Shown here piece after piece: positions 10,478 to 60,786 of a stretch of 64,000 nucleotides of DNA. The notes under the pieces were generated by a model that did not search any database, had not been told where the DNA came from, and saw only the letters and a program-made list of their open reading frames with translations. Position numbers and translations under genes: made by a program. The DNA comes from Chromatiales bacterium. Its GTDB lineage: Bacteria; Pseudomonadota; Gammaproteobacteria; RBG-16-57-12. Every line of letters starts with the position of its first letter. Position 1 is the first letter of the stretch. The stretch covers positions 14,596 to 78,595 of the forward strand of contig JALSJH010000019.1 in NCBI GenBank assembly GCA_026989455.1, read 5' to 3'.

Positions 10478-10888
10478 CTTAGGTATCTTGGTTGTTGAAT
10501 GCGTGGTAAGGGAAGCTCTAAATAAGTGATGATTATTACATGCCCGTATAGCCAGAGCCTATTTTTTTGTCATTTTGGGTTTAAATCTCCAAATAATTTA
10601 TGAATTAGGTACAATCGAGCTTGTTCCTTGATTTCATAAGGAATATTGAATCTGGATAATTCATGAATTATGCACAATATTACTTGTTTATTGCCTACAT
10701 GGACGCAGGTAAGAGGCGCTAGCAGGACGCGGTAGCTTTGACTCTGCAGAAAATATTTCCTCCATCGTCCGTAATCACGGATATGAAGCTCTTTCGGAAA
10801 TTCTCCTGTGAAGCCAATATCCTGCGTGTTTTTTGCACAAATTAATGAAATGTCGGGGTGGGTTGTTTCGTGGATGTACGGGTTTTTT

Positions 10889-11961: not shown

Positions 11962-14361
11962 ATGGATACTACCGTGGATAAAACAGAGCTACCGTACCCC
12001 TCATTACTAATCGAAGATAGTGACATCGCCGTGGGGCCGAAAAGTGCCATTATTGTCACCCTCATCAGTGGTAAAAAACTAAAAGGCCGTCTGGTTGAGT
12101 TTCTACCCAACTCACCCACCATGGCGGTTGCTGGAAAAGGTGATGAAAAGCTGATTGTTCACCTAGGGTTGATCAAGACGCTAACCTTCCCAACCAAACG
12201 TAATAGAAAAACACGTCAACCTGCGCTTGATGAAACTCAGGGCATCGAAATGCCGCCCAGCAGCCAGCCCTTCAAGATTGTTTTTAATGATGGTAGTGAG
12301 GTGAAAGGGGAGACCTTGGGTTACCGCCCTGATCAGCACGGTTTGCACCTTTTCCCACTGGTTGATGAAAATCTTTTTATTCAAACATTCTATTCACACC
12401 GGGCGATAAAAAGTTACCAAGTGGGTGATTTCTTGGGTGAACTGCTGTTGAAGGATGGGCTGGTTACCGAGAGTGATTTGCAGCAGGCGGTCGAAACGCA
12501 ATCGAGTGATCGCAAACAGCAGCTGGGTGATTATCTGGTCGGTAGCGCCATCGTTTCAAGCGAAGATTTGCAAAAAGCACTCCTGCGTCAACGCTCTATG
12601 CCCAACATGCGCCTAGGCGAAATCTTAGTTAGCGAAGGGTTGGTAAGTGATGCGCAAATTGATGAGGCGCTGGACGCTCAGAAGGTAGATCGTGGTCGCC
12701 CGCTGGGGGAGATTCTGGTCAGTCAGGGGGTGGTTGAACAAATTGATATTCAGCGCAGCCTGGCTAAAAAACTGGGTATCCCCTTTGTTAATCTGGCTGA
12801 TTATCAAATACCCCCCGATGTGATTCAACGGCTGGATGAGGGGGTGGTGAGAGAGCTAGAGGTGATCCCCATCAGCATGTTTGAGGGGCGCTTGGTGATC
12901 GCCATGGAAAACCCGATGGATCGTGAGGCGATTGAGGTTATCCGCTTTAACTGTAACGTCACCGTTGAGGCGGTGATGGCGGATGTGGCAGGAATTAGAA
13001 AAGCGATCGATTTTTATTACTCGGCGGCGGCTGGGAGCGAATTTTCTGATCTTGAAATAGAGGATGATGGGCTGGATGATGACCTGCACAGCCAGGAGCT
13101 GGAGCAGAATTTATCGGATAACCTAGTGGTTAAAATGGTGAATAAAATTGTTATTGATGCCCATGCCCAAGGGGTTTCCGATATTCACATTGAGCCTTAT
13201 CCAGGTAAAAACAAAACCATTATCCGTTTTCGAAAAGATGGCTCTCTGTTGGAGTATGTACAACTCCCCTCCCAATATAAAAACGCCCTGGTTGCCCGTA
13301 TTAAAGTGATGGCGCTGCTGGATATTTCCGAAAAGCGCCACCCTCAGGATGGAAAAATTGATTTTAAAAAGTTTGGGCCATTAAAAATAGAGCTGCGGGT
13401 TGCCACCGTGCCAACAGCCGCTGGCCTAGAAGATGTGGTGATGCGTATTCTAGCGGCAGGGGACCCCATTCCGCTGGATAAACTGGGCGTTAGCGACCAC
13501 AACCTAGTGCGACTCAAATCATTAATCGCCAAACCCTACGGAATGATCTTCGTTTGTGGCCCGACTGGGTCGGGTAAAACGACGACGTTGCACTCTATTC
13601 TCGGCCACATCAATGTCCCTGAGCGTAAGATTTGGACGGCTGAAGATCCGGTCGAAATTACTCAGGCCGGACTCCGGCAGGTGCAGATCAACCCAAAAGG
13701 TGGCCTCACCTTTGCCGATGCGATGCGCGCATTTCTGCGGGCAGACCCCGATGTAATTATGGTGGGTGAGATGCGTGATAAAGAGACCACCGGCATGGGT
13801 ATCGAGGCTTCTTTGACCGGGCACTTGGTCTTTTCAACACTTCACACCAACAGTGCGACGGAGAGTATTGTGCGTCTGCTGGATATGGGGATGGATCCCT
13901 TTAACTTCTCCGATGCGCTACTGGGTGTTTTGGCACAGCGACTGGCTAAACGCCTCTGCTCGGAGTGCAAACAGGCCTATCACCCCGATGAATCTGAGTT
14001 GAACGGACTGCTGGATGAGTATTGTAGCGACCTACCCACTGAGGGTGATGAAGTACCGCAACCGAAAGTGCTGGCCGAATGGCAGGCGCAGTTTCTGGAT
14101 AAAGAGGGGAAATTCACCCTCTATAAAGCGATTGGCTGTGATCACTGCAACGATACAGGGTACGCCGGGCGCTTGGGGCTGCATGAGTTGCTGGTAAGTA
14201 GTGATGATATTAAACGGGCTATTATCAGTAAAATGCCGATTGTTGACTTGACCCGCTTAGCGATGACAGAGGGGTTGCGCACACTGCTGCAGGATGGCAT
14301 TGAAAAAGTGCTGCAAGGGACAACGGATATACACTGCATTCGTGCGGTGTGTAGCAAGTAG
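11962..14361 (+). CDS. Orphan GspE/PilB/MshE-family secretion ATPase with tandem MshEN c-di-GMP-binding motifs and an N-terminal tandem beta-repeat domain
   Basis: 799 aa. C-terminal secretion-ATPase core (Walker A VCGPTGSGKTTTL, DPDVIMVGEMRD, tetracysteine C-x2-C...C-x2-C). Residues about 157-270 hold four 24-aa motifs at 30-aa period, each matching RLGxxhhxxGhhxxxxhxxhLxxQ (FLGELLLKDGLVTESDLQQAVETQ / QLGDYLVGSAIVSSEDLQKALLRQ / RLGEILVSEGLVSDAQIDEALDAQ / PLGEILVSQGVVEQIDIQRSLAKK). Residues 1-150 are two similar about 65-aa repeats (…VTLISGKKLKGRLVEF… / …KIVFNDGSEVKGETLGY…). Confidence 0.85.
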   Translation: MDTTVDKTELPYPSLLIEDSDIAVGPKSAIIVTLISGKKLKGRLVEFLPNSPTMAVAGKGDEKLIVHLGLIKTLTFPTKRNRKTRQPALDETQGIEMPPSSQPFKIVFNDGSEVKGETLGYRPDQHGLHLFPLVDENLFIQTFYSHRAIKSYQVGDFLGELLLKDGLVTESDLQQAVETQSSDRKQQLGDYLVGSAIVSSEDLQKALLRQRSMPNMRLGEILVSEGLVSDAQIDEALDAQKVDRGRPLGEILVSQGVVEQIDIQRSLAKKLGIPFVNLADYQIPPDVIQRLDEGVVRELEVIPISMFEGRLVIAMENPMDREAIEVIRFNCNVTVEAVMADVAGIRKAIDFYYSAAAGSEFSDLEIEDDGLDDDLHSQELEQNLSDNLVVKMVNKIVIDAHAQGVSDIHIEPYPGKNKTIIRFRKDGSLLEYVQLPSQYKNALVARIKVMALLDISEKRHPQDGKIDFKKFGPLKIELRVATVPTAAGLEDVVMRILAAGDPIPLDKLGVSDHNLVRLKSLIAKPYGMIFVCGPTGSGKTTTLHSILGHINVPERKIWTAEDPVEITQAGLRQVQINPKGGLTFADAMRAFLRADPDVIMVGEMRDKETTGMGIEASLTGHLVFSTLHTNSATESIVRLLDMGMDPFNFSDALLGVLAQRLAKRLCSECKQAYHPDESELNGLLDEYCSDLPTEGDEVPQPKVLAEWQAQFLDKEGKFTLYKAIGCDHCNDTGYAGRLGLHELLVSSDDIKRAIISKMPIVDLTRLAMTEGLRTLLQDGIEKVLQGTTDIHCIRAVCSK

Positions 14362-26876: not shown

Positions 26877-27050
26877 AATGATGGTCCGGTCAAAAGGGGG
26901 ATTTTAGCACGCAAACATGCGACCTACAGCAAGTTTAACTCCGCTGAGGATGCCGTGAAATATCACAGAGCCGCCCCTTTTGTGTGAAAACAGCTCGATG
27001 TAAGGTGAAATGTAAGCGCACGGTATCGTTGCAAAACAGCTTGCTTTAGG

Positions 27051-27132
27051 GGTTTCTGATTAACTCTGGATGAATTTAGACTGAGGGCGACTTCAGCCAG
27101 CATAAAGCACTCATGGCTTGACCGGAGCCTCC
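27051..27132 (-). repeat. Miniature inverted-repeat element, short form, copy 1 (inverted orientation)
   Basis: GGTTTCTGATTAACTCTGGATGAAT...ACTCATGGCTTGACCGGAGCCTCC. Terminal repeats and core match the other six copies. Lies between the rlmL start and the tRNA promoter. Confidence 0.7.
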
Positions 27133-27188
27133 CCTAGGGCGGTTTTATCGACAGAGCGGCATCGGTTCTGCCAGGTGTTTTTAAACGG

Positions 27189-27216
27189 TTGACAACAATA
27201 ATCCCAGCTATATAAT
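27189..27216 (+). promoter_or_regulatory. Near-consensus sigma70 promoter for the tRNA operon (TTGACA-N16-TATAAT)
   Basis: TTGACA at 27189-27194 and TATAAT at 27211-27216. tRNA-Gly starts 15 nt downstream of the -10. Confidence 0.65.
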
Positions 27217-27230
27217 ACGCAGCAAATCAG

Positions 27231-27306
<76 letters not shown>

Positions 27307-27371
27307 TTTTTTTGTCTTTGAGTATTATATAGCGTAACTGCGGACTTAAAGAGATGTTTCACATAGTTTAC

Positions 27372-27445
27372 GGCTGGGTAGCAAAGTGGTTATGCTGCGG
27401 ATTGCAAATCCGCCGACGGCGGTTCGATTCCGCCCTCAGCCTCCA
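27372..27445 (+). tRNA. cysT: tRNA-Cys (GCA)
   Basis: GGCTGGGTAGCAAAGTGGTTATGCTGCGGATTGCAAATCCGCCGACGGCGGTTCGATTCCGCCCTCAGCCTCCA; anticodon GCA. Confidence 0.95.
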
Positions 27446-27491
27446 TTTTATCCCCTTATAAATGACCTTACTGATTAATCAATGCCCCTCT

Positions 27492-27578
27492 GCCCGGGTG
27501 GCGAAATTGGTAGACGCAAGGGACTTAAAATCCCTCGGTGGAAACACCGTGCCGGTTCGATTCCGGCCCCGGGCACCA
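27492..27578 (+). tRNA. leuZ: tRNA-Leu (TAA)
   Basis: GCCCGGGTGGCGAAATTGGTAGACGCAAGGGACTTAAAATCCC...long variable arm...GGTTCGATTCCGGCCCCGGGCACCA; anticodon TAA. Order gly-cys-leu as in E. coli glyW–cysT–leuZ. Confidence 0.95.
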
Positions 27579-27660
27579 ATTTTCAGTTACTGTTCTCAGC
27601 TATTTCAAGCAGAACAGTCAATACTCCTACCGCAATATCTTGGTCACCTCGCTCCACTGA

Positions 27661-27806
27661 GGAAGCCCTGAGCCAACCATGAATGTTTTTTGCTGGCTGA
27701 AATTGCCCTCATTTATCCGAAAAATTTCACCCATAGAATAACTATTGCTGCGCATTTTGGCGCAAATAAAAATAATATCCGCTTACCCTAAATCTAATCA
27801 GACTCA
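27661..27806 (+). repeat. Miniature inverted-repeat element, long form, copy 2 (forward; degenerate right end)
   Basis: GGAAGCCCTGAGCCAACCATGAATGTTTTTTGCTGGCTGAAATTGCCCTCATTTATCCGAAAAATTTCACCCATAGAATAACTATTGCTGCGCATTTTGG... Nearly collinear with the reverse complement of copy 3. Confidence 0.7.
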
Positions 27807-27888
27807 TTTATAGATTCCTTGATAACATGATGGTATGGAGCCGTTATTCGTCTATCCATTCATGCAACGATTTTTGTAAGCGGGGAGT

Positions 27889-29469
27889 TTGTTGGTGGTT
27901 GAGTCTGTGGTGTGGGGTGCGTTATTTCTGGCGTTAATTACCGGTGCGATGCTGGGTGCTTGGTTGGTGTGGCGCAAGATGAGCGTGGCGGCTAAGCAGC
28001 AGCAGTCGGACGCGTCACAACAGCAGTCTGCTCGATTGGCTGAGGTGCAGGGTGAGCTTCAGCAGCGGCAGACTGCGTGGGCGGTGGCTGATGAGCGGGT
28101 TGTCAGCATGGAGAAACAGTTGCAGCAGGAGCTGGAAGAGCGGCGTTTGTCTCAGCAGCAGTTGCACGAGGTGCGAGAGGCGTTGAGTGAGGCGCGCCAG
28201 CAGTTGGAAGGTGCGCGTCGTGCCGAGCAGGCGTTGGTTGAACAGTCTCAGCAACTTAAGCAGCAACAGCTTGAGCTGCGCCAGCAACTGGATGAGATGC
28301 AGCAGCATAACAGCACACTGCGGGCTGAAAATACCGAGTTGCATACTCGCCAGCAGGAGAAAGAGCTCCATTATGCCTCACAGGTTGCACAGTTTGAGCA
28401 GCAGAAGCTTGAGCTTAGTCGCGAGTTTGAAAACCTGGCCAATCGTATTTTTGAGGCTAAAGGGAAGTCATTCTCTGAGAACAGTCGGCAATCGTTGGAT
28501 GATCTGCTTAAGCCATTTCGTCAACAGATTGTCGATTTTCGACAAAAAATAGAAGAGATTCATCATAAAGAGACCGAGCAGCAAGCGCAGTTGCGTAGTG
28601 AGCTGGGTTATCTAAAAGAGCTTAACAAGCAGATTACCGAGGAGGCTCATCAGCTGGCGACGGCACTTAAGGGGCAAAAGAAGAGCCAAGGGAATTGGGG
28701 TGAGTTGATTCTGGAGAATGTGCTGGATCGCTCTGGCTTGGTGATTGATAAAGATTATAAACGTGAGGTGAGCTTTAATACGGAAAGTGGCCGACAGCGC
28801 CCGGATGTTATTGTCTACTTGCCTGAAGATAAACATTTGATTGTTGATGCAAAAGTTTCATTGAACGCCTACACCCGCTATGTAAATAGTGAGAGTGAGG
28901 TTGAATCTCAGCAGGCGATGAAGGAGCATGTTGCAGCTATTTCTGATCGCATTAAAGAGCTATCTGACCGCCACTATTTTGAGCTGCCGGGTTTGAACTC
29001 GCCGGAAATGGTGTTTATGTTTATTCCAATTGAGTCCGCTTTTGTTGAGGCGCTGCGAGCGGATGAGACTCTATTCCAGAAAGCGCTAGAGCAGAATGTG
29101 CTGGTGGCCACGCCGACCACGCTGCTGACCAGTTTGAATATTGTTCGTCAGCTGTGGCGCTTTGAGGATCAAAACCGTCACACGGCTGAGTTGGCTGAGA
29201 AGGCGGGCAGAATGTACGACAAGTTCAATACCTTTTTGGGTTCGATGGAGAAGGTGGGGCGCTCGCTGGATAGTGCTAAAGATAGTTATGAGAAGGCGTT
29301 CGGCCAGCTCTACAGTGGTCGAGGTAACCTGATTAAGCAGGCTAACGACTTTAAGAAGTTGGGTGTCTCTGTTAAGGCCGAGTTGCCGGCGCTGTTGGTG
29401 GAGCGTGCAGAACTTGAGTTGGATCATTCGGCTGTTGATGTTGCGGATGAGACCGAAAAAAAAATATAG
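27889..29469 (+). CDS. rmuC: DNA recombination protein RmuC
   Basis: 526 aa. N-terminal TM, a long Q-rich coiled coil, then the RmuC domain (KGQKKSQGNWGELILENVLDRSGL, RPDVIVYLPEDKHLIVDAK). Aligns with E. coli RmuC. The start could be TTG 27889 or GTG 27895. Confidence 0.85.
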   Translation: MLVVESVVWGALFLALITGAMLGAWLVWRKMSVAAKQQQSDASQQQSARLAEVQGELQQRQTAWAVADERVVSMEKQLQQELEERRLSQQQLHEVREALSEARQQLEGARRAEQALVEQSQQLKQQQLELRQQLDEMQQHNSTLRAENTELHTRQQEKELHYASQVAQFEQQKLELSREFENLANRIFEAKGKSFSENSRQSLDDLLKPFRQQIVDFRQKIEEIHHKETEQQAQLRSELGYLKELNKQITEEAHQLATALKGQKKSQGNWGELILENVLDRSGLVIDKDYKREVSFNTESGRQRPDVIVYLPEDKHLIVDAKVSLNAYTRYVNSESEVESQQAMKEHVAAISDRIKELSDRHYFELPGLNSPEMVFMFIPIESAFVEALRADETLFQKALEQNVLVATPTTLLTSLNIVRQLWRFEDQNRHTAELAEKAGRMYDKFNTFLGSMEKVGRSLDSAKDSYEKAFGQLYSGRGNLIKQANDFKKLGVSVKAELPALLVERAELELDHSAVDVADETEKKI

Positions 29470-29550
29470 CGTAATGGTTTCCGTAGCCGTACCTGCTGGC
29501 TTTTCTCTGGCATAATACCCCGCATCTTCTTCCTATAAAATACAGACAGC

Positions 29551-30339
29551 ATGACAACAGAGAGTTATCAGCGCCGCTTTGGTGGTGTGCAGCGGCTATA
29601 TGGTGACGCGGGGCTTGAGATTCTCTCTCAGGCGCGTTTTTGTGTGGTTGGTATTGGAGGTGTTGGCTCTTGGGTTGCGGAGGCTTTGGCGCGGAGCGGA
29701 GTCGGTAGTATGACGCTGATCGATTTTGATGAGATATGCGAAACCAATATTAACCGCCAACTGCCCGCATTGAGTAATACCCTCAATCAAAAAAAATGCC
29801 AGGTGATGGCGGAGCGAATTGCCCTCATCAATGCGGATTGTCAGCTTGAGGTGATTGATGACTTTATCACCTTAAAGACATATCAAACATATCTTGATGG
29901 TGATTTTGACTATGTGATTGATGCGATTGATAGCATTAAATTTAAAGCGCTGATGATCAACTATTGTAAGCGTAATAAAATCCCGATTATTGTGACCGGT
30001 GGTGCGGGTGGTATGACCGATCCGACCCAAATTCAGGTGCAGGATCTGAGCCGTACCTTTAACGATCCGTTGATTGCCAAGGTGCGCTCACAATTGCGAA
30101 AAGAGTTCGGTTTTAGCAAAAACAGTAAGCGTAAATTTGGCATTGATTGTGTTTTTTCATCCCAACAGCCGGTCTATCCAAAAAAAGATGGTACGGTGGG
30201 CTATGAAAAACCGGGTATTCACGGGGTCTCACTGGATTGCCGTTTTGGTTACGGAGCGGCCAGTTTTATCACTGCCAGTTTTGGTTTTATGGCCGCAGGC
30301 CATGCGATAAATCGATTGATTAAGAGAAAATCTCTGTAA
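29551..30339 (+). CDS. tcdA: tRNA threonylcarbamoyladenosine dehydratase TcdA (CsdL; ThiF/MoeB fold)
   Basis: 262 aa. RFGGVQRLYG..., the nucleotide loop VVGIGGVGSWVAEALARSGVG and the MTLIDFDEICETNINRQ motif. Confidence 0.85.
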   Translation: MTTESYQRRFGGVQRLYGDAGLEILSQARFCVVGIGGVGSWVAEALARSGVGSMTLIDFDEICETNINRQLPALSNTLNQKKCQVMAERIALINADCQLEVIDDFITLKTYQTYLDGDFDYVIDAIDSIKFKALMINYCKRNKIPIIVTGGAGGMTDPTQIQVQDLSRTFNDPLIAKVRSQLRKEFGFSKNSKRKFGIDCVFSSQQPVYPKKDGTVGYEKPGIHGVSLDCRFGYGAASFITASFGFMAAGHAINRLIKRKSL

Positions 30340-30345
30340 ACATAA

Positions 30346-30503
30346 GGAGGCTCTGATTAAGTCTGGATGAATTTAGGCTGAGAGGAAATTGTTCTCATTT
30401 ATTCCGAAATGCGCAGCAATAGTCGCTCTATTGGTGTGGTTTTCGGGATAAATGAGGGCGATTTCAGCCAGCATAAAACATTCATGACTTGATCAGAGCT
30501 TCC
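30346..30503 (-). repeat. Miniature inverted-repeat element, long form, copy 3 (inverted; best-preserved, both terminal repeats intact)
   Basis: GGAGGCTCTGATTAAGTCTGGATGAAT ... ATTCATGACTTGATCAGAGCTTCC, 158 bp. Terminal repeats are mutual reverse complements over about 24 bp. Starts 7 nt after the tcdA TAA stop. Confidence 0.75.
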
Positions 30504-30528
30504 ATAAGCAGCTTTAAGGAGTGGTGAA

Positions 30529-30897
30529 ATGTATTTTGTATTACTGGTGGTGCTGTTAAGTGCTCTCCTGGGTGGCTGTAGTCGTGAGGCGGGTGATGCC
30601 ATGACGACGATTAATTTAGAAGATCGAGCTCAGGGTAAGGTTAAGTCGATCATTATTCGTGGGGGCTGTTTTGGCTGTCATGATGTTAATGAACACCGTT
30701 TTGGCCCTGCGTGGAGTGCGGTGAACGAGCGTTATAAAGATGACCCTGAGGCGGCTCAAAAACTATTTGAAAGTGTGAAGTATGGTAGTGGTGGAAAGTG
30801 GACTGCGGTGTCTGCTAGTGCGGTAATGCCGCCGAATGAGAGCAAGGTGAATGATACGGAAATAGCCGCCGTAGTTGAGTATATTCTTTCGCTATAA
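30529..30897 (+). CDS. Class I c-type cytochrome lipoprotein (c551/c552-like)
   Basis: 122 aa. Lipobox LLGGCS. A single heme-binding CFGCH. Distal Met region AVMPPN. Confidence 0.7.
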   Translation: MYFVLLVVLLSALLGGCSREAGDAMTTINLEDRAQGKVKSIIIRGGCFGCHDVNEHRFGPAWSAVNERYKDDPEAAQKLFESVKYGSGGKWTAVSASAVMPPNESKVNDTEIAAVVEYILSL

Positions 30898-30954
30898 ATT
30901 TTTAGTGCAACGGAGCTGCTTTCTGGCTGAACTCAACTTAAAGGCGAGGGTTGT

Positions 30955-31428
30955 ATGGGGTATCCGTGGCGATTACTGATTGTTGTGTTAACAGTGTCGG
31001 GGTGTGTGGCGGACTCGGAGCGGGGGCGCTCACAGCAAGTCTCTGAAATCGAAAAGCGGATGGTCAAGCAGGATGTCGATAAGGGTGTTGTGGCGGAGCG
31101 GTTGCTACAGGAAGCCAATAATGCCCGAATGGTGGGGGATACCTATCTGGCGATTGATTACACAAAACGGGCTAAGTATTATACCCCGGAAAGCCCAGTG
31201 ATCTGGTTTCAGCTAGCACAGCTTTACCTACAGCAGGGGCGCTACAAAGAGGCTGAGGCGAGTGCGCTGAGAACGATCCGCTACTCTAATAATAGCACTC
31301 AGATACAGGCTAAAGGGTGGCGTTTGATTGAGCAGTCACGGCTGTTATTAGGGCGCGAGGATCGTGCTCAATATGCCGGAACTCGTGCCGCCGAGCTTGA
31401 GCGCGAACAAGTTTTCTTTAAAGATTGA
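30955..31428 (+). CDS. TPR-like lipoprotein, unknown function
   Basis: 157 aa. Lipobox TVSGCV. Helical TPR-like repeats (YLAIDYTKRAKYY, WFQLAQLYLQQGRYKEAE). Confidence 0.5.
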   Translation: MGYPWRLLIVVLTVSGCVADSERGRSQQVSEIEKRMVKQDVDKGVVAERLLQEANNARMVGDTYLAIDYTKRAKYYTPESPVIWFQLAQLYLQQGRYKEAEASALRTIRYSNNSTQIQAKGWRLIEQSRLLLGREDRAQYAGTRAAELEREQVFFKD

Positions 31429-31469
31429 AAAGGTTTCCATCTTTTTTTAAATTGGTTTATAAGACTCTA

Positions 31470-31505
31470 GTACATCAACCCGCCTATATAATAGGGTTGA
31501 TGTAC
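31470..31505 (+). promoter_or_regulatory. Perfect palindrome GTACATCAACCC-N12-GGGTTGATGTAC with TATATAAT in the spacer
   Basis: Read directly. It sits 37 bp upstream of the 31542 ORF. Could be an operator over a -10-like box, or a terminator for the upstream lipoprotein gene. Confidence 0.45.
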
Positions 31506-31541
31506 TAATTACCTATACATTTTATTTGTGAGAAATATCCG

Positions 31542-32045
31542 GTGGGTATCTACGCGGTTGATAAATTAATGAAAGAGGCTCGTACCTTGGCGGCGCAATA
31601 CCGCAAGGCGACGGGTAAGCCGCTAGGAATTAGCAGTGAAATTGCGGAGTATGATGCGGCGCGTTTACTGAATCTTGAGCTCTGTACCGACCGCTCTGCC
31701 GGGTTTGATGCCATTGGTGCGGGTGAGCGGGAAGGGCGGCGTGTTCAAATTAAGGGGCGCGCTATTTTCGATGAGCGCAAATCGGGCCATCGTATTGGTC
31801 AATTGAAGTGTGACAAATCGTGGGATAGCGTAGTACTGGTGATTATGAACTCGGAGTATGAACCCGTCGAGATCTATGAGGCCAGTCGTGATGTTATCGA
31901 TGAGGCGATGGCGGCTAGCCAGAGCAAACGGGCTAACCGTGGTGCGATGACGGTGGCAAAATTCAAAGTGATCAGTGAGCTGGTCTGGTGTGTTGAAACG
32001 GGTGCGATTACGGATGAGGTTCGGGATAGTCACGGTGATGAATAA
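31542..32045 (+). CDS. Hypothetical protein with Mrr-catalytic-like (PD-(D/E)xK-type) motif; putative nuclease
   Basis: 167 aa, GTG start. Contains ...AGFDAIGAGEREGRRVQIKGR..., which resembles the Mrr_cat D...QxK core (cf. GxDGGIDG...vQcKry). No other recognisable domain. Weak SD. Confidence 0.45.
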   Translation: MGIYAVDKLMKEARTLAAQYRKATGKPLGISSEIAEYDAARLLNLELCTDRSAGFDAIGAGEREGRRVQIKGRAIFDERKSGHRIGQLKCDKSWDSVVLVIMNSEYEPVEIYEASRDVIDEAMAASQSKRANRGAMTVAKFKVISELVWCVETGAITDEVRDSHGDE

Positions 32046-32080
32046 GATGTTGAGTTTCAGGGCTGATTGCTGAAAATACC

Positions 32081-34036
32081 ATGCAGAATTGTACTGACAT
32101 ACTGGGCCATGATGGCCCTTTTTCACACCACCTGACAGGCTTTGCACCACGTCTGCAGCAGCAAGAGATGGCTGAGCAGGTTGAGAAGGCGATTAGTGAT
32201 CGCTCGATTTTGGTGGCCGAGGCGGGTACCGGTACGGGCAAAACTTTTGCCTATCTAGTGCCGGCACTGCTTTCATCAGAAAAAGTTATTGTCTCAACCG
32301 GTACCAAAAACCTTCAGGATCAACTCTTTTATCGTGACCTTCCCCTAGTACGCAAAGCGTTACAGCAGCCAGGTAAGGTGGCTCTATTGAAGGGGCGATC
32401 TAACTATCTTTGTCACTACCGGCTTGATCTGTATCGGAATAGTCCTCGCGTTCAAAATCCGGCACTGCACAAAACATTAATCAAAATAAAGCGTTGGAGC
32501 GAAGTCACTAAAAGTGGTGATACCGGTGAGCTGACCGATGTGGCGGAAGATTCGCCACTCTGGCCGTTTGTCACTTCGACGGCGGATAACTGTCTGGGTC
32601 AGGAGTGTCCTAGTATTGCTGATTGCTGTGTGATGAAGGCACGACGTAAAGCACAAGAAGCTGATTTGGTGGTGGTTAATCATCATCTATTTTTTGCCGA
32701 CCTTTCACTGAAGGAGGAGGGGATTGCCGAGTTGTTGCCAGGGGCCAATGCGGTAATCTTTGACGAAGCACACCAACTCCCTGAAGTGGCCAGTAATTTT
32801 TTTGGCCAAGCCTACAGCAGTAATCAACTGCTGGAGCTGGTGAGTGATATCCAGGCTGCCATTGTGGATGAGGCGGTGGATATGCAGCTGCTCGGTAAAC
32901 TGGCTGATCGGCTGGAGTACACGGCAAAACTGTTTCGACGGGTGATGCCCGATAACAGTAACCGCATCACCTGGAAAGTGTGCAGGCAGATCGATGGCGT
33001 GGATGCCGCTCTGAAAGAGATGGGCGAAACACTGGGTGAACTACTGGAACAGCTGGAGGTGGGTGCTGAGCGGGGCAAAGTGTTAGCGAACTGTTTTGAA
33101 CGCTGTGGTGAGTTGTATGAGCGTTTCCAGAAGTTAACCGGGGAGACACCTGAAGGTTTTATCCACTGGGTTGGCGTGTTCAATCGCTCGGTGGTGGTTA
33201 ACCTGACCCCCATGGATATTGCTGATATTTTCAGGGAATATATGAAATCACGCCCCTGCGGTTGGATTTTCACATCCGCTACGCTCACGGTTGCTAACAG
33301 CTTTGAGCATATTTGCAGAACCTTGGGTATCGATGATGCGGTCTCCCATAGCTGGGATAGCCCATTTGATTACATGAACCAGTCGGTTCTCTATATCCCT
33401 ACAGGTCTGCCAGAGCCCTCAAGTAGTGAATATGGTGCAGAAGTGGTGGCGCAGGCGTTGCCGGTGTTACGGGCGAGTGAAGGGCGTGCATTTATGCTGT
33501 TTACCAGCCACCGTGCCCTTCAGGAGGCGGCGGGGTTGCTTGAGGATGAGTTGGATTACCCGCTGTTTATTCAAGGCAGTATGCCGCGTTCACAGCTACT
33601 GGCCAAGTTTCGAAAAACCGCCAATGCTATTTTGCTGGGCACCAGCAGTTTTTGGGAGGGGGTGGATGTGCGTGGCGAGGCGCTCTCTTGTGTGATTATC
33701 GATAAGCTGCCCTTTGCTTCACCGGGTGATCCACTGTTGCAGGCACGTATTGATGCGATTCGTGAACGTGGAGGTAACTCTTTTCGTGACTATCAACTTC
33801 CCCAGGCGGTGATCGCACTGAAGCAAGGGGTGGGGCGGCTGATTCGCGATGTCAATGATCGCGGAGTATTAATGATTTGTGATCCCCGTACGCTGAATAA
33901 ATCCTATGGCAGAATATTTATCGACTCTCTTCCCCGTATGAAACGTACCCGTAACTTAAAGCGTGTGGAGCAGTTCTTTGAGGAACCCCTAAAAGAGCCG
34001 ATAGTAGATTCAAGCGTAGATTCAAGCGCTCAGTGA
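32081..34036 (+). CDS. yoaA: ATP-dependent DNA helicase YoaA (DinG/Rad3 family, Fe-S)
   Basis: 651 aa. VAEAGTGTGKTFAYLVPAL, DEAHQLP, VVNHHLFFAD, the Fe-S Cys cluster (CLGQECPSIADCC), and C-terminal GVGRLIRDVNDRGVLMICD. Collinear with E. coli YoaA and followed by tsaB as in E. coli. Confidence 0.85.
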   Translation: MQNCTDILGHDGPFSHHLTGFAPRLQQQEMAEQVEKAISDRSILVAEAGTGTGKTFAYLVPALLSSEKVIVSTGTKNLQDQLFYRDLPLVRKALQQPGKVALLKGRSNYLCHYRLDLYRNSPRVQNPALHKTLIKIKRWSEVTKSGDTGELTDVAEDSPLWPFVTSTADNCLGQECPSIADCCVMKARRKAQEADLVVVNHHLFFADLSLKEEGIAELLPGANAVIFDEAHQLPEVASNFFGQAYSSNQLLELVSDIQAAIVDEAVDMQLLGKLADRLEYTAKLFRRVMPDNSNRITWKVCRQIDGVDAALKEMGETLGELLEQLEVGAERGKVLANCFERCGELYERFQKLTGETPEGFIHWVGVFNRSVVVNLTPMDIADIFREYMKSRPCGWIFTSATLTVANSFEHICRTLGIDDAVSHSWDSPFDYMNQSVLYIPTGLPEPSSSEYGAEVVAQALPVLRASEGRAFMLFTSHRALQEAAGLLEDELDYPLFIQGSMPRSQLLAKFRKTANAILLGTSSFWEGVDVRGEALSCVIIDKLPFASPGDPLLQARIDAIRERGGNSFRDYQLPQAVIALKQGVGRLIRDVNDRGVLMICDPRTLNKSYGRIFIDSLPRMKRTRNLKRVEQFFEEPLKEPIVDSSVDSSAQ

Positions 34037-34061
34037 ACTCTCAGCCAATAGAAGGTCTTAT

Positions 34062-34742
34062 ATGAGTTGCCATAAAATACTCGCCATTGAAACATCGACG
34101 GCGGCTTGCTCTGCCGCATTACAGATCGGAAATGAGGTGATTGGGGAGTTTGAAATTGCTCCGCGACAACACTCTGAATTGATCATTTCGATGGTAGACA
34201 AGTTGCTTGTTGAGTCGGGATTTTCATTGCGTCAGCTAGATAGCATCGCTTTTTCCCGTGGGCCGGGCGCCTTTACGGGGTTGCGTATTGCTGCGGGTGT
34301 GGTGCAGGGGCTTGCGTTTGCAAGTGACTTGCCGGTTACGCCCGTTTCAACGCTGGCGGCGATGGCTCACGGGGCCTTTCGCGACTACGGCACACAACGG
34401 GTGCTGGTGGCCAATGATGCGAGCATGAAAGAGGTCTATTTTGGTGCGTATTATATTCCTGAGCTTGGCCAAGCAAATTTATTAGACGAAGAGCGCGTGA
34501 TATCCATGGCAGATATCTCCTCGCTGGATGAGGGCGAGTGGCTGGCACTGGGCAATGGTTGGCAGCGTTATGCCGATCAAATACCTGCAGCAGTGGCTGA
34601 TCAGGTGCATAAGAGGGTGATCGAATACTACCCCGATGCAAAAGAGGTGGTAAGCCTAGCACAAGCCCTTTTTTCCAAGGGTGAGTATGTAGCGGCTGAA
34701 GAGGCGATTCCCATCTATTTACGTGACAAGGTTGTGGGTTAA
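34062..34742 (+). CDS. tsaB: tRNA t6A biosynthesis protein TsaB (YeaZ)
   Basis: 226 aa. ILAIETSTAACSAAL..., SRGPGAFTGLRIAAGVVQGLAF. Confidence 0.88.
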   Translation: MSCHKILAIETSTAACSAALQIGNEVIGEFEIAPRQHSELIISMVDKLLVESGFSLRQLDSIAFSRGPGAFTGLRIAAGVVQGLAFASDLPVTPVSTLAAMAHGAFRDYGTQRVLVANDASMKEVYFGAYYIPELGQANLLDEERVISMADISSLDEGEWLALGNGWQRYADQIPAAVADQVHKRVIEYYPDAKEVVSLAQALFSKGEYVAAEEAIPIYLRDKVVG

Positions 34743-34819
34743 GGAAGCTCTGAACAAGTCATGAATGTTTTATGCTGGCTGAAATTGCCTACATTTATCC
34801 AGACTTAATTAGAGACTTC
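34743..34819 (+). repeat. Miniature inverted-repeat element, short form, copy 4 (forward)
   Basis: GGAAGCTCTGAACAAGTCATGAATGTTTTATGCTGGCTGAAATTGCCTACATTTATCCAGACTTAATTAGAGACTTC. Begins at the nucleotide after the tsaB TAA stop. Confidence 0.75.
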
Positions 34820-34849
34820 TTAATGGGCCGAGTAAAGTGGTGATAACGG

Positions 34850-36055
34850 ATGTTTAAAAGAGAGTGGCCCTTGAAACAGTTGATAACAGTTTTAATGCTT
34901 GGCGGATTGTTGATGCTGGTGGGATGTTCGAGTATTCCGGACCATCGTTCAGATGCTGCGCGTTACTCTGCCCCCATCTCTGAGTTGGATGTTTATAGTC
35001 TGATGACCACTCGTCAGGCTGGGCGTATTAATTTCAGTGGCAAAAATCTTACACGCCTGACCATGAATAATGCCGATTTTTCCGGTGTGAAGTTTGTTGA
35101 GTCGTACCTCGGTTTTACCGAGCTACGCCGCACCAAGTTGGAGAATGCCGATTTTTCAGGTGCTAATTTGCACCATGTGGATCTTCGGGGGGCTAATTTG
35201 CGTTATGCCTCGTTGCGCGATGCCATGCTGCGTTATGCGGATCTCAGTGGTGCTGATTTAACCGGTGCTGATTTGACCGGTGCGGATCTGCGCGGCGCAA
35301 AACTGAATAGGACAATTTTTGATGGAACCATTTTGGTTGAAACTGATTTTATCGATGCAGAGATTCATCGTGCAAAATTTAGTAATGTAGAGTTTCGCTA
35401 TACTCGCTTTAAAAATGCGTCACTGGATTACTCTGTCTTTAAGGAGGTCATTTTCAATGATGGAATTTATGTTGGTGCATCTATGGTGAGTGTGGTGATG
35501 CGTAAAGCTAATCTATTTCTTATCGAGATGGAAAATGTTGATTTCACTCGGGCTAACTTTCGCGGAGCAAGTTTTGAGAGAGCTAAATTCACTAAGGTTA
35601 AATTTGACCGGGCTGATTTGAGTCATGCCTATCTGCATGCAACTACATTTAAAGATAACTCCATGCGGGGTGTGAATCTTCGCCATAGCAGGGCCATCTC
35701 TTCCAATTTTACAGGTAGTAATTTGGAGGGTGCTAATCTTTATAGAATGGATGCTACAAGGGCAAATTTTGTCTGGACAAATTTGAATAATGTGAAGGCC
35801 TCCGAGGCTAATTTTGAGTCGGCAAATATGAATAACGCCAGTATGCGTAACAGTGACTTTCGCCGTGCAAGATTCGTGGGTTCTAACCTGATCTCCTCCT
35901 CTTTTGCATATAGTGACTTGAGTGAGGCTGATTTTCTGAAGTCTGATATTCGTGGTGTTGACTTTACCGGGGCAAAACTTTTTCGGGTAAAAAACCTTGA
36001 TGATGTGAATGGCTTAAAGAAAACAAGAAACCTTGATCCTTCCACTATTTTGTAA
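34850..36055 (+). CDS. Pentapeptide-repeat lipoprotein
   Basis: 401 aa. Lipobox LMLVGCSS. More than 40 tandem A(D/N)LxG-type pentapeptide repeats (ADLSGADLTGADLTGADLRGAKL...). Confidence 0.8.
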   Translation: MFKREWPLKQLITVLMLGGLLMLVGCSSIPDHRSDAARYSAPISELDVYSLMTTRQAGRINFSGKNLTRLTMNNADFSGVKFVESYLGFTELRRTKLENADFSGANLHHVDLRGANLRYASLRDAMLRYADLSGADLTGADLTGADLRGAKLNRTIFDGTILVETDFIDAEIHRAKFSNVEFRYTRFKNASLDYSVFKEVIFNDGIYVGASMVSVVMRKANLFLIEMENVDFTRANFRGASFERAKFTKVKFDRADLSHAYLHATTFKDNSMRGVNLRHSRAISSNFTGSNLEGANLYRMDATRANFVWTNLNNVKASEANFESANMNNASMRNSDFRRARFVGSNLISSSFAYSDLSEADFLKSDIRGVDFTGAKLFRVKNLDDVNGLKKTRNLDPSTIL

Positions 36056-36395: not shown

Positions 36396-36454
36396 TGCCT
36401 AAATGGACGCAGGCAAGGGGCGATAGCAGATAGCAGGACGCGGTAGTTTTGATC
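36396..36454 (+). repeat. Short dispersed repeat, family 2 (about 55 bp; second copy at 10692-10744)
   Basis: GCCTAAATGGACGCAGGCAAGGGGCGATAGCA(GATAGCA)GGACGCGGTAGTTTTGATCC versus 10692 GCCTACATGGACGCAGGTAAGAGGCGCTAGCAGGACGCGGTAGCTTTGACTC. Confidence 0.55.
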
Positions 36455-46717: not shown

Positions 46718-46814
46718 GTACTGTATGATAGTGGTAGCGCCGTCTGTAGATTCAGTGTGACTTCATTGACCTCACCTCTCTAGTTTAACCTCAAATGGAG
46801 CTGGTTTTGACTCC

Positions 46815-46873
46815 TAAGGAATCTCTGATTAAGCCAGCATAAAACATTCATGACTTGATCAGCGCTTCCCTAA
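46815..46873 (-). repeat. Miniature inverted-repeat element, internally deleted copy 7 (inverted)
   Basis: TAAGGAATCTCTGATTAAG|CCAGCATAAAACATTCATGACTTGATCAGCGCTTCC. Both terminal repeats present, core deleted. Confidence 0.6.
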
Positions 46874-47377: not shown

Positions 47378-47514
47378 CCGGGCGCGAGAATTGATAGGGC
47401 TTACACTTGCAATTCACACTAAAAACAAGGTATTTTATGAGTTCCCCAGGGGTATAGGGTAAATTTCTTGGGTATGTATGAATCCATTTAAAAACGAGTG
47501 TGTGTGGGGTTGTT

Positions 47515-48474
47515 ATGGGTCAAAATGATCGGAATTCATCGGTTGCAGTTTTTATCGATGTGGAAAATATACATTATTCGACTTTGAATAGTTATGCAGA
47601 GACCCCGGATTGGTCGCGGATCGTGGATGCTTGCAAGGAGTACGGGCGAATCGCCTCGATACAGGCGTTTGGCGACTGGGTAAACTTCTCCAAAGAGGTG
47701 GCCGAAATTCAGCGAAATGGAATTCAGCCGATTTATGTTCCGCTGTCTCAGGATGGAAAATCAAGCCTCGATTGCTATTTAACGGTTTCAGCGATGAAGT
47801 TGTTTTTCCAAAACGACACCATCGATACGCTGATTCTGGCATCGGGTGATCGTGACTATATCCCCCTGATTGCTGAGCTGAAGGCGATTGGTAAACAGGT
47901 GATTATTCTCGCCGTACCCGATACCCTGTCACGGGATCTTACACGCATTGTTGATGACGTTATCTCATACACACCTCGCGCAGAAGAGAGGAGTGGTTCG
48001 CCGATTCAGGTTGTCGATAAACAGAGTGCCAGTGATTTTGTGGTGGCAACGATAGAGGGGCTGGAAAACTCTTTTAACCACCGCTGGGTTAACTTAGCCA
48101 GTATCGGCCTCGCGCTTAAAAAGCGCGATCCTCTATTTACCCATAAAAAGTTCAACTACTTGAAGCTGGTGGAGATGTTGGATGACATTCCCGAAATAGA
48201 GCTGAAATATGATAACCATGAAAAGACCATCGCCTTGGCGCGCACCGTAACCGGCAATATTGGCGAGGCATCGGAAGTGTTGAAAGGCTCCATTGTAAAC
48301 ATCAAAGATGGCTATGGTTTTATCAAACCCGATGTGGGTTGGGATAATATTTTCTTTCACTACAGCAAAGTGATTAACGGCAATTTTACCGAGTTATCGA
48401 TTGGTGACACGGTCTCATACACCATCTACAACACAGAGCGTGGTGAGAATGCGGAGAATGTGAGTCGTTTATAG
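47515..48474 (+). CDS. NYN (LabA-like PIN) – OST-HTH/LOTUS – cold-shock-domain protein
   Basis: About 320 aa. N-terminal NYN/LabA (VAVFIDVENIHYS ... ASGDRDYIPLIAELK). Middle LOTUS-like helical segment. C-terminal CSD (IKDGYGFIKPDVGWDNIFFHYSKV...GDTVSYT) resembling CspA RNP motifs. Confidence 0.7.
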   Translation: MGQNDRNSSVAVFIDVENIHYSTLNSYAETPDWSRIVDACKEYGRIASIQAFGDWVNFSKEVAEIQRNGIQPIYVPLSQDGKSSLDCYLTVSAMKLFFQNDTIDTLILASGDRDYIPLIAELKAIGKQVIILAVPDTLSRDLTRIVDDVISYTPRAEERSGSPIQVVDKQSASDFVVATIEGLENSFNHRWVNLASIGLALKKRDPLFTHKKFNYLKLVEMLDDIPEIELKYDNHEKTIALARTVTGNIGEASEVLKGSIVNIKDGYGFIKPDVGWDNIFFHYSKVINGNFTELSIGDTVSYTIYNTERGENAENVSRL

Positions 48475-48535: not shown

Positions 48536-48625
48536 TTGAGCAAACCATGAACACGTCATTATTTTTTATACTGGCTTAGATTGTCCTCATTTATCTCCAA
48601 AATCACACCAGTAGAGTGACTGTAA
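48536..48625 (+). repeat. Miniature inverted-repeat element, degenerate long-form copy 5
   Basis: AAACCATGAACACGTCATTATTTTTTATACTGGCTTAGATTGTCCTCATTTATCTCCAAAATCACACCAGTAGAGTGACTG aligns with the copy 2/3 core. Confidence 0.5.
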
Positions 48626-48636
48626 AAATTAGCCGC

Positions 48637-50448
48637 TTAGGCACACAGCTCTCCGCAGTCAGTGCTGTCACCGCCGCCGCCACCGTTATCACCACCAGAG
48701 GATGGATTACTGACCCAAGCTGAAAGGTATTTGGTAGTCGTGCCATATTGATTGGTGAATCTAACGGTAATCAAATAGTAATCCTCGCCTACGATATTAA
48801 AGATCTCTTGAGTCAGATTGAGGGTGGTTGCTCCGGTGCCCGCAATATCAGAGCTTGCGGCAAGTTGTGTCTCGCCCCCTCCCATTGGCAGAGAGTATGA
48901 AATGGTGACGCTGTCGGCACCCTCCACATCCCAAGAGATAGTCGCACTCTGCGTGGTTGAGTCCATAGCCACGGAATAATTAAACTCATGGAGAATCGGT
49001 GTAGGCTCAGCATCGTAGGGCAGGTTAACGGTTTTTGTAACGCTATTGTTGTCTGAATCGGTTGCTGTGAGTGTAAAGGTGTACTGGTCGGCAGGGACTC
49101 CATTCAGCCCCATGGGGAATTGGGTTGACCCCGTGGCATTACCGAGCGTGGTGTTGTGTCCTTGATCTGAGGTGAGAGCCAATAACTCAGCGCTGACAGT
49201 TGACCAAGTGAAGATCGCATCGTTTCTATCAAACACCCAACGGGTATTGGATGGGTTTTGTGGGTCGAGTTCCAGTATGAAAAAGGGCTTTACCCGGCCG
49301 TTAAACGAATGAATGATGGGGGTTTCCGGGCCAGTAAACGCCAGTGTCAGAGCTCCCGCCACACCGTCACAGTTGTGGGTGGTGTTCGCCCGGTAAAGCC
49401 CATCAGGTGCAAAGGCGGTAGATTTAAGCTCTATATCAACCCCTCTAGGCATGGCGAGCGTTCTTCCACTATTAAGTAGGTTGGTAGATGCTGTGCGAGG
49501 GAAGCTGCTTGTTGTGCTGCCATGTAGCCTAGGAGTATCGGCATCGCTGGGTAGGCCGGAGGGTGTGACTGATAGAAAGCAGATCTGAGGGGCGATATCA
49601 TGGTTCCACCAGGAAAAGTGTGTAACCGTTGCCTGCAGAGCCATACCGGTGGGTGAGTCGACAGATGCGATGATGGTACCGACATTTTCTTGCAACCACT
49701 CTCCTGTGGCTTCATCCAGATACCATAGTGCGCCATCGTCACCGATCTGAACGGGAATGCCGTCGGGGTGGTTAGTGATGAAAACAGGTATTTCAATGGT
49801 GGCCGATTGGCCGCCAGCCAAGTTCAGCTCATTGCCATTTTGTGAAAAATAATACTCTACTGTGCCGTAGGACATGATGATCGGTGCGGCATCACCATTA
49901 ATATCAGTGCCGCTAAATGCACCGGGGAATACACCCAGTTCATTGTCATCGGAAACATCGACCGGTGTAATACTGAGCTGGACAGTGCCCGTCACTGGGT
50001 TGCCATTGGCATCGACCAAGGCACCTGCTGGCAAGCTAACTCGGGCACCGGAGATGCCGGTAATATCAATCGCTGCATCAGCGCTGAGAGTGATGGCGGC
50101 ACTTCTTTTGCCCAAGGTTGCGATAAAATCTGCTTGGTCATTGTTTGTTTCGAGCATAACGGTTTGTGCCGCGTAGCCGGGCTTTCTTAGGCGAACGCTA
50201 TCGGCCTTGTTTGCGGCGATGGAAAAACTGACTATGCCAGCGCTGTTGGAAGTGGCCAGCACACCATCATCGTTATAGATTTCGACACCCTCCAGAACCA
50301 GCTGGTCAGGGGTGCGTACCATGCCTGTTACGCTCACATTACTAGCCGCTGTATTGTCGGAGTCAGAATTGCTGCTGGAACAGCCGGCAATCATACTGAC
50401 TAAAAATAAAAGAGAGAGTAGCCAGGTCAGCTTGTTTCGTATATCCAT
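48637..50448 (-). CDS. Large secreted lipoprotein with Ig-like/beta-sandwich repeats and Gly-rich Cys-containing C-terminus
   Basis: 603 aa. Lipobox MIAGCSSS. Thr/Ser/Gly-rich beta modules. C-terminal SSGGDNGGGGGDSTDCGELCA. Confidence 0.55.
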   Translation of the reverse strand: MDIRNKLTWLLSLLFLVSMIAGCSSSNSDSDNTAASNVSVTGMVRTPDQLVLEGVEIYNDDGVLATSNSAGIVSFSIAANKADSVRLRKPGYAAQTVMLETNNDQADFIATLGKRSAAITLSADAAIDITGISGARVSLPAGALVDANGNPVTGTVQLSITPVDVSDDNELGVFPGAFSGTDINGDAAPIIMSYGTVEYYFSQNGNELNLAGGQSATIEIPVFITNHPDGIPVQIGDDGALWYLDEATGEWLQENVGTIIASVDSPTGMALQATVTHFSWWNHDIAPQICFLSVTPSGLPSDADTPRLHGSTTSSFPRTASTNLLNSGRTLAMPRGVDIELKSTAFAPDGLYRANTTHNCDGVAGALTLAFTGPETPIIHSFNGRVKPFFILELDPQNPSNTRWVFDRNDAIFTWSTVSAELLALTSDQGHNTTLGNATGSTQFPMGLNGVPADQYTFTLTATDSDNNSVTKTVNLPYDAEPTPILHEFNYSVAMDSTTQSATISWDVEGADSVTISYSLPMGGGETQLAASSDIAGTGATTLNLTQEIFNIVGEDYYLITVRFTNQYGTTTKYLSAWVSNPSSGGDNGGGGGDSTDCGELCA

Positions 50449-50644: not shown

Positions 50645-51286
50645 ATGCAAACTTATACCCTGATCCTCGTTGAAGATGATGCCGATATATGTGATCGCCT
50701 TGTGCAGCTCATTGCCCAGCATGACAACTTAAAGCTGCTGGCGGTGGCCAGCAGTGTCGCTGAAGGGTTGACGGCTCTGGCAAAGCACAAGCCAGATATT
50801 CTACTGGTTGACCTTGGGCTGCCCGATGGGTCGGGCATCGAAATCATCAAGGCTATCGACAAGCAGCACCTTGATTGTGAGGCGATGGTTATTTCTGGCT
50901 TTCAGGATGAGTACCGCGTTTTTAGTGCGCTGGAAGCGGGAGCTAAGGCGTATATTCTCAAGCACGACAAAAGCCAGAAAATTACCGATGCTATTATCAA
51001 TATGATGGGTGGTGGTGCGCCCATCAGCCCGGTTATCGCCCGCCTGATGTTGCAGAAGTTTAAGGTGCCGAGGTCACATGAGCAGGGCTTGGTAGAGGCG
51101 TTGACTCACCGCCAGACAGATATTCTTAAGCTGGTAAGTCAGGGGTTTTCATCCCGTGAAATTGCTGAAAAACTGGGAATTAGCTATTACACGGTGACCA
51201 CCCACATCAAAAGCATTTATAATAAATTGCAGGTCAACAGCCGTACCGAGGCTCTCTATGAAGCCGCTAGGCTTGGGCTACTCTAA
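50645..51286 (+). CDS. Response regulator, NarL/LuxR family
   Basis: 213 aa. REC (LILVEDDADI ... ILLVDLGLPDGSG) plus LuxR HTH (LTHRQTDILKLVSQGFSSREIAEKLGISYYTVTTHIKSIYNKL). Confidence 0.8.
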   Translation: MQTYTLILVEDDADICDRLVQLIAQHDNLKLLAVASSVAEGLTALAKHKPDILLVDLGLPDGSGIEIIKAIDKQHLDCEAMVISGFQDEYRVFSALEAGAKAYILKHDKSQKITDAIINMMGGGAPISPVIARLMLQKFKVPRSHEQGLVEALTHRQTDILKLVSQGFSSREIAEKLGISYYTVTTHIKSIYNKLQVNSRTEALYEAARLGLL

Positions 51287-51332
51287 GGAAGCGCTGAACA
51301 CGTCATGAATATTTTTTGTCGGAATGAACGCG
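51287..51332 (+). repeat. Miniature inverted-repeat element, truncated copy 6 (left terminal repeat only)
   Basis: GGAAGCGCTGAACACGTCATGAATATTTTTTG begins at the nucleotide after the response-regulator TAA stop. Confidence 0.55.
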
Positions 51333-55101: not shown

Positions 55102-55224
55102 TTCATCGCGTTCAATTAGCCACAGATTCCCTATATGCTCCCTCTTTTCGTGCGAAAATGCCTCGGTTTGAAAGGAAATATAAACACGTTAAATAGTGAC
55201 AACTTATGAAGTGTTCGGGGGTAG

Positions 55225-60661: not shown

Positions 60662-60786
60662 CTGTAACTATTCAGCGCGTTTATATTTTGCCTCAAATTG
60701 AGGCGCTTTCGCACGCAAAGAGGGAGCTATAGGGAATAGGCGACCGATTGAGTACGAAAATAACGAAGAGTTGGGGCAAAAGATGA

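Follow-up and report, generated by a model that had tools for sequence, protein, structure and literature searches.

Intergenic repeats in the window

The window (the whole 64-kb stretch of DNA that was analysed) belongs to an uncultured gammaproteobacterium that is represented by MAGs only. It carries a 158-bp, nearly perfect palindrome, bounded by imperfect terminal inverted repeats of about 22 bp (GGAAGCTCTGA(A/T)CAAGTC and GGAGGCTCTGATTAAGTC), in the gap between a ThiF-family gene and a cytochrome c gene that both lie on the + strand. This palindrome is the intact form of a single repeat family, which comprises seven intergenic segments in the window and one possible remnant (Table 1; all coordinates are those of the window). 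We will refer to GGAAGCTCTGA(A/T)CAAGTCATGA as the A-end and to GGAGGCTCTGATTAAGTCTGGATGA as the B-end (the names are coined here); complete copies have the ends GGAAGCTCTGAWCAAGTC and GGAGGCTCTGATTAAGTC at their two sides. The intact copy has its A-end at the higher coordinate, and its + strand therefore starts with the B-end.

Table 1. Members of the repeat family in the 64-kb window.
Feature	Coordinates	Strand	Evidence and remarks
Intact copy, 158 bp	30346-30503	-	Profile E = 2.6e-56; A-end at high coordinate
ATAA target-site duplication of the intact copy	left 30342-30345, right 30504-30507	.	Read from the sequence
Full-length diverged copy, 158 bp	27661-27818	+	Profile E = 2.4e-44; 77% identical to the intact copy
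Short copy, 84 bp, both ends, centre deleted	27049-27132	-	Profile E = 1.3e-10 and 3.9e-5 (two ends)
Short copy, 77 bp, both ends, centre deleted	34743-34819	+	Alignment and profile
Minimal copy, 52 bp, essentially two ends	46818-46869	-	Alignment and profile
Degenerate half copy, A-end and left arm only	48537-48622	+	Profile positions 4-90, E = 1.3e-12
Solitary A-end remnant	51287-51322	+	Profile E = 1.6e-5
Possible eighth copy, end-only remnant GGAAGCTCTAAATAAGTGATGATTATT	10508-10543	+	Marginal, profile E = 0.02

An earlier note on this DNA had proposed that seven intergenic segments form one family with a conserved core, and both proposals hold. The segments align base by base (alignment A1) and match one another in blastn, and a repeat search joins the same seven places. 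A profile made from 18 full-length copies (2 of which come from the window itself) recovered all seven, with E values from 2.6e-56 to 1.6e-5. At up to 3 mismatches, GGAAGCTCTGAWCAAGTCATGAAT (the terminal motif) has 4 occurrences in the window, as compared to 0.01 expected from shuffled sequence, and the core motif has 3 (0.00 expected). It is therefore extremely improbable that the family is a chance or compositional likeness of AT-rich intergenic DNA, or an artefact of assembly: motif counts are far above the shuffled expectation, profile E values for the seven segments run from 2e-5 down to 1e-56, the same copies are present in independent assemblies of the window's own species (L001 and L136), and related copies are found in dozens of metagenome contigs.

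The members of the family are locally dense (about one copy per 9 kb, or 7 in 64 kb), have a G+C content of about 43%, and range from 52 to 158 bp, with no transposase gene in any of them. Just 2 of the 7 are full length. The long form that had been described measures 158 bp. The form of about 80 bp is not a discrete class, as the copies with deleted centres are of 52, 77, and 84 bp and have differing breakpoints. The limits of the individual copies changed in places. Those of the intact copy and of the copy at 34743 stand as first given; the copy at 27661 extends to 27818 instead of 27806; and the copy that ends at 27132 begins at 27049 instead of 27051. The segment 46815-46873 consists of a 52-bp element together with its two CTAA duplications. 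The segments that were reported at 48536-48625 and 51287-51332 do belong to the family, but each has one end only and somewhat narrower limits.

Comparison with the ORFs places every copy between genes, as had been proposed. The copy at 27661 lies between tRNA-Leu and rmuC, the copy at 46818 between htpX and msrB, and the half copy at 48537 between two convergent genes. The copy at 34743 sits at the stop codon of tsaB, and the remnant at 51287 starts where the reading frame of a response-regulator gene stops (CTCTAA, followed directly by GGAAGCGCTGAAC). A 67-aa ORF on the - strand (30399-30602) overlaps the intact copy and is almost certainly spurious. With the window's intergenic repeats now explained as mobile DNA, overlapping ORFs of this kind can be discounted.

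The copy at 27049-27132 is upstream of the promoter of the tRNA-Gly/Cys/Leu genes. It is adjoined by 15 extra bases (27133-27147, CCTAGGGCGGTTTTA), which are also missing from the empty site of a close relative (described below), so the segment inserted there is longer than the element. The flanks of this copy, TTTA and CCTA, are unmatched. The tRNA-Gly(GCC)/Cys(GCA)/Leu(TAA) cluster (27231-27578) is immediately preceded by a perfect sigma-70 consensus (TTGACA, 16 nt, TATAAT) at 27189-27216, and the copy lies about 57 bp upstream of the first hexamer of that consensus.

Terminal repeats and target-site duplications

Inverted repeats of about 24 bp had been noted at the ends of the copies. The repeats are there, but they are imperfect and measure about 22 bp. 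A search for target-site duplications had also been suggested, and they were found, with a length of 4 bp. The intact copy is flanked by ATAA on both sides, the copy at 34743 by TTAA (34739-34742 and 34820-34823), and the copy at 46818 by CTAA (46814-46817 and 46870-46873), while the diverged copy at 27661 has CTGA on one side and TTGA on the other. Thus, 3 of the 5 window copies that have both ends retain perfect duplications. Across 63 distinct complete elements, from the window and from the other loci that we collected, the two flanks agree at all four positions in 27 and at three of four in 19.

The duplicated tetranucleotide follows a pattern. In a scan of metagenome contigs, the sequence YTAR directly precedes 62 of 110 distinct end occurrences among the matches listed; by chance it would be expected at 1.6% (4 of 256 tetranucleotides). 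YTAR (5'-YTAR-3') is the target of IS5 (PMC5009759). Because YTAR contains TAA or TAG, insertions would often fall at or beside stop codons and at the 3' ends of genes. In the window, the stop codons of tsaB (34740-34742) and of the response-regulator gene (51284-51286) are examples.

The duplications also bear on whether the family is an already known repeat, namely ERIC/IRU, REP/BIME, or Correia, or else a TA-duplicating MITE derived from IS630/Tc1. (MITE is used here for miniature inverted-repeat elements.) In its size (about 158 bp), its fold as a palindrome, and its location between genes, the element is like ERIC and Correia elements, and TA is found within the flanks. However, four bases are duplicated (ATAA, CTAA, or TTAA) and not the two bases TA, which argues against IS630/Tc1, as do ends that match an insertion sequence with an IS5-type DDE_Tnp_1 transposase (see below). 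Correia (NEMIS) elements duplicate TA and are not known to share ends with the present element; the 4-bp duplication excludes them. ERIC elements have TA flanks. No hit was obtained by blastn (11-base words, E values of up to 10) in the 5,426 complete genomes of E. coli, a species in which ERIC, REP, and BIME are present; for ERIC/IRU, this result and the 4-bp duplications both argue against identity. REP and BIME are short G+C-rich palindromes without duplications, as compared to a 158-bp element with about 43% G+C and a duplicated target. Furthermore, at gathering thresholds the only Rfam matches in the window are three tRNA genes. Taken together, it is very improbable that the family is one of these known repeats or has an IS630/Tc1 origin, and the earlier note was right to hold it apart from ERIC, REP, and BIME.

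Blastn against plasmids found no match to the element. Literature searches for the end sequences found no paper that contains them, and those for the accession numbers gave nothing relevant. A scan of species-representative genomes yielded one MAG contig, with two tandem copies (described in the next section). A match from the same scan, in Candidatus Venteria, looks like chance, with no similarity beyond the 21-nt pattern, and the one pattern match from a scan of viral contigs similarly had no similarity beyond the pattern.

Empty and filled sites in relatives

We compared the window to the assembly GCA_054017615.1, whose contigs L128 and L135 are syntenic with it at 88-94% nucleotide identity (about 91%). 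In this relative, 5 of the 7 window sites are empty. The clearest case is the site at 34743. L128 reads GTGGGTTAA followed by GGGTC, with a single TTAA that includes the stop codon of tsaB and with no element; at the exact point of this single TTAA, the window has TTAA, the element, and TTAA. At the site of the intact copy, the gap between the ThiF-family and cytochrome c genes is 189 bp in the window and 23 bp in L128, which keeps a single ATAA in this region. There is no element at 27049 in L128 or at 48537 in L135. The site at 46818 has a single CTAA and no element in L135, while the element is present in L136, which is from the window's species. The remnant at 51287 is identical in L136.

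The site at 27661 is occupied in both lineages. The copy is 158 bp in the window and about 55 bp in L128, where the two ends are present and the middle is deleted. This indicates that short forms arise by deletion of the centre of the hairpin in place. Together with the differing breakpoints of the short copies in the window, it also indicates that the short copies are independent internal deletions, and not the discrete short form that a likeness to Correia elements had implied.

The contig that was found in the species-representative scan (L005; MAG contig JALSHQ010000104.1, positions 267-586) has two full-length copies in head-to-tail tandem. They share one TTAA and are 95% identical to the window's intact copy. 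Probably, one copy inserted into the duplication of the other.

These comparisons show that the family was recently active. At least five insertions separate the window's organism from a relative of about 91% identity, and several of these insertions are inside likely operons or at stop codons. With terminal inverted repeats, 4-bp duplications, and empty sites in a close relative, the original description of the family as a miniature inverted-repeat element is borne out.

Synteny between the window and the relative is broken at two places. After slyX (L128 from 12372 onward), the relative has a 95-aa Y1_Tnp (IS200/IS605-type) ORF at 12548-12835. After a 600-aa gene, synteny breaks again (L135 7628-8486), with an IS66-type transposase in the relative.

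Ends shared with IS5-group insertion sequences

The earlier note had suggested a parent of the IS630/Tc1 or IS1016-like type. Instead, the family has ends of the IS5-group type and, like that group, duplicates 4 bp of the form YTAR. In E. coli (NC_000913), the ends of IS5 are GGAAGGTGCGAACAAGTC and GGAAGGTGCGAATAAG, and the element's GGAAGCTCTGAACAAGTC matches at 15 of 18 positions. In a longer reading the IS5 ends are GGAAGGTGCGAACAAGTCCC and GGAAGGTGCGAATAAGCGG; it is the first of these that the A-end matches (15/18). Furthermore, in the element as in IS5, the two ends are distinguished by C versus T at the same position of the repeat.

We scanned metagenome contigs for GGAAGCNCTGAWCAAGTCAT and obtained at least 119 stretches. 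Among the matches listed, the interiors downstream of this motif are varied. When all of the fetched loci were searched by tblastn with InsH, an IS5-type transposase was found beside the motif only in L009, L113, and L125, none of which is from the window's organism; the host of L009 is a different, G+C-rich organism. The L009 metagenome contig contains a 1172-bp insertion sequence that runs from GGAAGCTCTGAACAAGTCATGACG to an inverted GGAATCTCTGAATAAG, with flanks CTAG and TTAG. Its bounding end, GGAAGCTCTGAACAAGTCATGA, is the same as the element's end over 22 nt, although the first 20 of these are identical by construction of the search pattern. Past about 22 nt, the element does not resemble the L009 insertion sequence, so that descent from it by simple internal deletion is uncertain. 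The gene within the L009 insertion sequence is 46% identical to InsH over 311 aa (tblastn) and matches the Pfam families DDE_Tnp_1 (E = 1.5e-28) and DUF772 (E = 6.8e-24). Its nearest relatives on plasmids have 64% identity and are annotated as IS5 family transposases; the ends of these plasmid elements are GGCAAYGCTGAWYAAG with TTAA adjoining, a pattern that the element's end resembles. The search for an insertion sequence with matching ends, which the earlier note had proposed, led to an IS5-type element in a contig of another organism, and not to one of the IS630/Tc1 or IS1016 type.

Tblastn with InsH found no IS5-type transposase in the window, in agreement with the earlier note's statement that no transposase is present there, or in the fetched contigs of the organism and its relatives. 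Judged at the level of sequence, the MITE is derived from the IS5 group. We are confident that the segments belong to a non-autonomous MITE whose terminal inverted repeats are those of an IS5-group insertion sequence.

We propose that an IS5-type DDE transposase, which would be supplied in trans, recognises the ends of about 22 bp and inserts the 158-bp element into a YTAR tetranucleotide, duplicating those 4 bp. The near-perfect palindrome loses its centre by deletion in place, giving heterogeneous short copies, and others are reduced to single ends. The family has spread in the window's lineage since its split from the relative of about 91% identity.

A hairpin that favours one strand

The long hairpin that had been predicted from the inverted repeats is nearly perfect in an RNA fold of the intact copy. 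Over 30340-30510 of the + strand, which is the B-end-first strand, the fold is a single long hairpin of -95.7 kcal/mol (z = -14.8). The complementary (-) strand of the intact copy reaches -61.8 kcal/mol. With DNA parameters, the corresponding energies for the intact copy are -48.2 kcal/mol (+ strand) and -32.5 kcal/mol (- strand).

This asymmetry extends well beyond the window. At least nine families of 157-162 bp share the end, with about 62-69% identity to the family of the window. Across them the G+C content varies from 37 to 58%, and all retain the ends, the length, and an apical AATAG..CTATT motif. The B-end-first strand folds better in 36 of 37 distinct full-length elements (means of -79.4 versus -57.4 kcal/mol). 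When 24 nt were trimmed from each end, this strand was still better in 9 of 9 families (-45.5 versus -31.0 kcal/mol). Nearly every difference between the arms (in at least nine families) is one that leads to G:U on one and the same strand. We relied on folding energies and consensus pairs because self-alignment of the arms for mismatch types is noisy, due to bulges. Cells at consensus pairs are Watson-Crick in 1014 cases, G:U in 181, and A:C in 17, and 18 of 37 pairs have changes on both sides (compensatory). On alignment A2, 94.2% of cells are paired versus 79.4% in shuffles (0 of 500), while in controls with slid partners just 30-46% of cells are paired; as the cross-family counts are not phylogenetically independent, the strength of the hairpin signal is uncertain.

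A purely selfish element that moves as double-stranded DNA by cut and paste would not be predicted to have a covarying hairpin that is strand-specific. These observations raise the question of whether the family is primarily a structured module of RNA or single-stranded DNA, with mobility being secondary. In that case, the 158-nt fold-back would itself be the selected function, as a strand-specific single-stranded structure and not a by-product of the MITE. Such a module might be a site for processing and stability in operon transcripts (by RNase III or RNase E), or a fold-back that is needed for mobilisation. The strand preference (both in complete elements and after trimming), the excess of G:U over A:C cells, the pairing above shuffled and slid controls, the compensated pairs, and the conserved length and apex all speak for this idea.

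Other evidence points away from it. Relative to co-directional flanking genes, orientation is unbiased (9 versus 8 for long copies and 4 versus 3 for short copies). Nor is there a bias relative to the leading strand, with 3 versus 4 window copies in the two orientations and GC skew positive throughout the window. The lack of orientation bias implies that the strand preference belongs to the element itself and does not stem from the host's transcription or replication. A consensus scan of the four copies in 26900-35000 found no promoter-like or terminator-like site over any of them. Close relatives differ in which copies they carry, copies decay freely, and the support from many families is tempered by their phylogenetic non-independence. 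Overall, we consider it unlikely that a selected single-stranded structure is the primary nature of these repeats, and we prefer the interpretation that they are an IS5-type MITE. If the fold-back is nevertheless selected, then the mobilisation of IS5-type MITEs may depend on a single strand that is folded, or else the elements might be orientation-dependent modules for RNA processing or stability.

Even as a MITE, the family might affect its neighbours. In the wider set, among the matches listed, the gene context is convergent in 13 cases and divergent in 3. When transcribed, the intact copy sets a 158-nt hairpin into what was formerly a 23-bp intercistronic gap. By analogy with ERIC and Correia elements (PMC3184786), it is plausible that the copies have effects on mRNA processing or stability and on neighbouring genes. 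A hairpin as stable as that of the intact 158-bp copy (up to about -96 kcal/mol) could alter mRNA processing at sites in operons and at stop codons. More broadly, the same ends mark widespread elements of about 158 bp in environmental metagenomes. Why a MITE that moves by cut and paste should keep a strand-specific hairpin could be studied on this large natural collection.

Other repeats and genes in the window

A second MITE-like family, also palindromic, is present in the window; its members are about 140 bp long and have the ends GTAACTAYTCAGYGYGTTYAT. Its two copies in the window (60664-60803 and 55069-55200) lie in opposite orientation and share 73% identity. Metagenome contigs that carry the first family contain at least nine further matches (7 full-length at 84-89% identity and 2 partial). 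In one of these contigs (L028 9182-9322), a copy of the second family abuts a copy of the first family whose A-end is cut off.

At 10692-10745 and 36396-36450, a direct repeat of about 55 nt lies between genes, with the sequence TGCCTAMATGGACGCAGGYAAGRGGCG.TAGCAG..GACGCGGTAG.TTTGA. The two copies are 88% identical over the first 34 nt and have no match in Rfam.

The - strand at 48637-50448 encodes a 603-aa protein with no NCBIfam match. Beside its gene is a gene (47500-48474) for a protein with NYN, OST-HTH, and cold-shock domains. Both proteins are conserved in relatives.

Comparison with known elements

The features that we found in this family (inverted ends, duplications, absence of a transposase, many copies, a stable fold, and both filled and empty sites) agree with the usual definition of a MITE (PMC3184786). 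Among autonomous elements, IS5 and the IS5 group are the closest: the ends begin with GGAAG and share ..GA(A/T)(C/T)AAGTC (15/18), and both have a 4-bp YTAR duplication. In contrast to an insertion sequence, the element has a length of 158 bp and no transposase, and its palindromic interior is unrelated to the interior of any insertion sequence that we found.

In plants, Tourist/mPing MITEs are small and palindromic, have TAA/TTA-type targets, and are mobilised by PIF/Harbinger transposases, which are eukaryotic relatives of IS5. They resemble the present element in being small, palindromic, and non-autonomous, but they are eukaryotic and unrelated in sequence, and their duplication is 3 bp (PMC2213677).

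Among bacterial repeats, ERIC/IRU forms a palindrome, likewise imperfect, of about 127 bp; it is transcribed together with genes and has reported effects on mRNA stability, and Correia (NEMIS) elements are about 104-157 bp (PMC3184786). The Correia elements and the present element are alike in their size range, fold-back, and intergenic location, and in having long and internally deleted forms. However, the Correia short form is one discrete deletion, whereas the short copies of the present element are heterogeneous.

Finally, MITEs that are related to the IS5 family have already been described in Porphyromonas and Neisseria (PMC4596501). BrickBuilt/MITEPgRS of P. gingivalis and the Neisseria ATR (linked to ISNme1) are, like the present family, non-autonomous, and were assigned to IS5-family parents by their shared ends (PMC4596501). 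They differ from it in having ends of the GAGACC.. type, in belonging to other IS5 subgroups, and in size, whereas the family that we describe here combines IS5-group ends with a 4-bp YTAR duplication.
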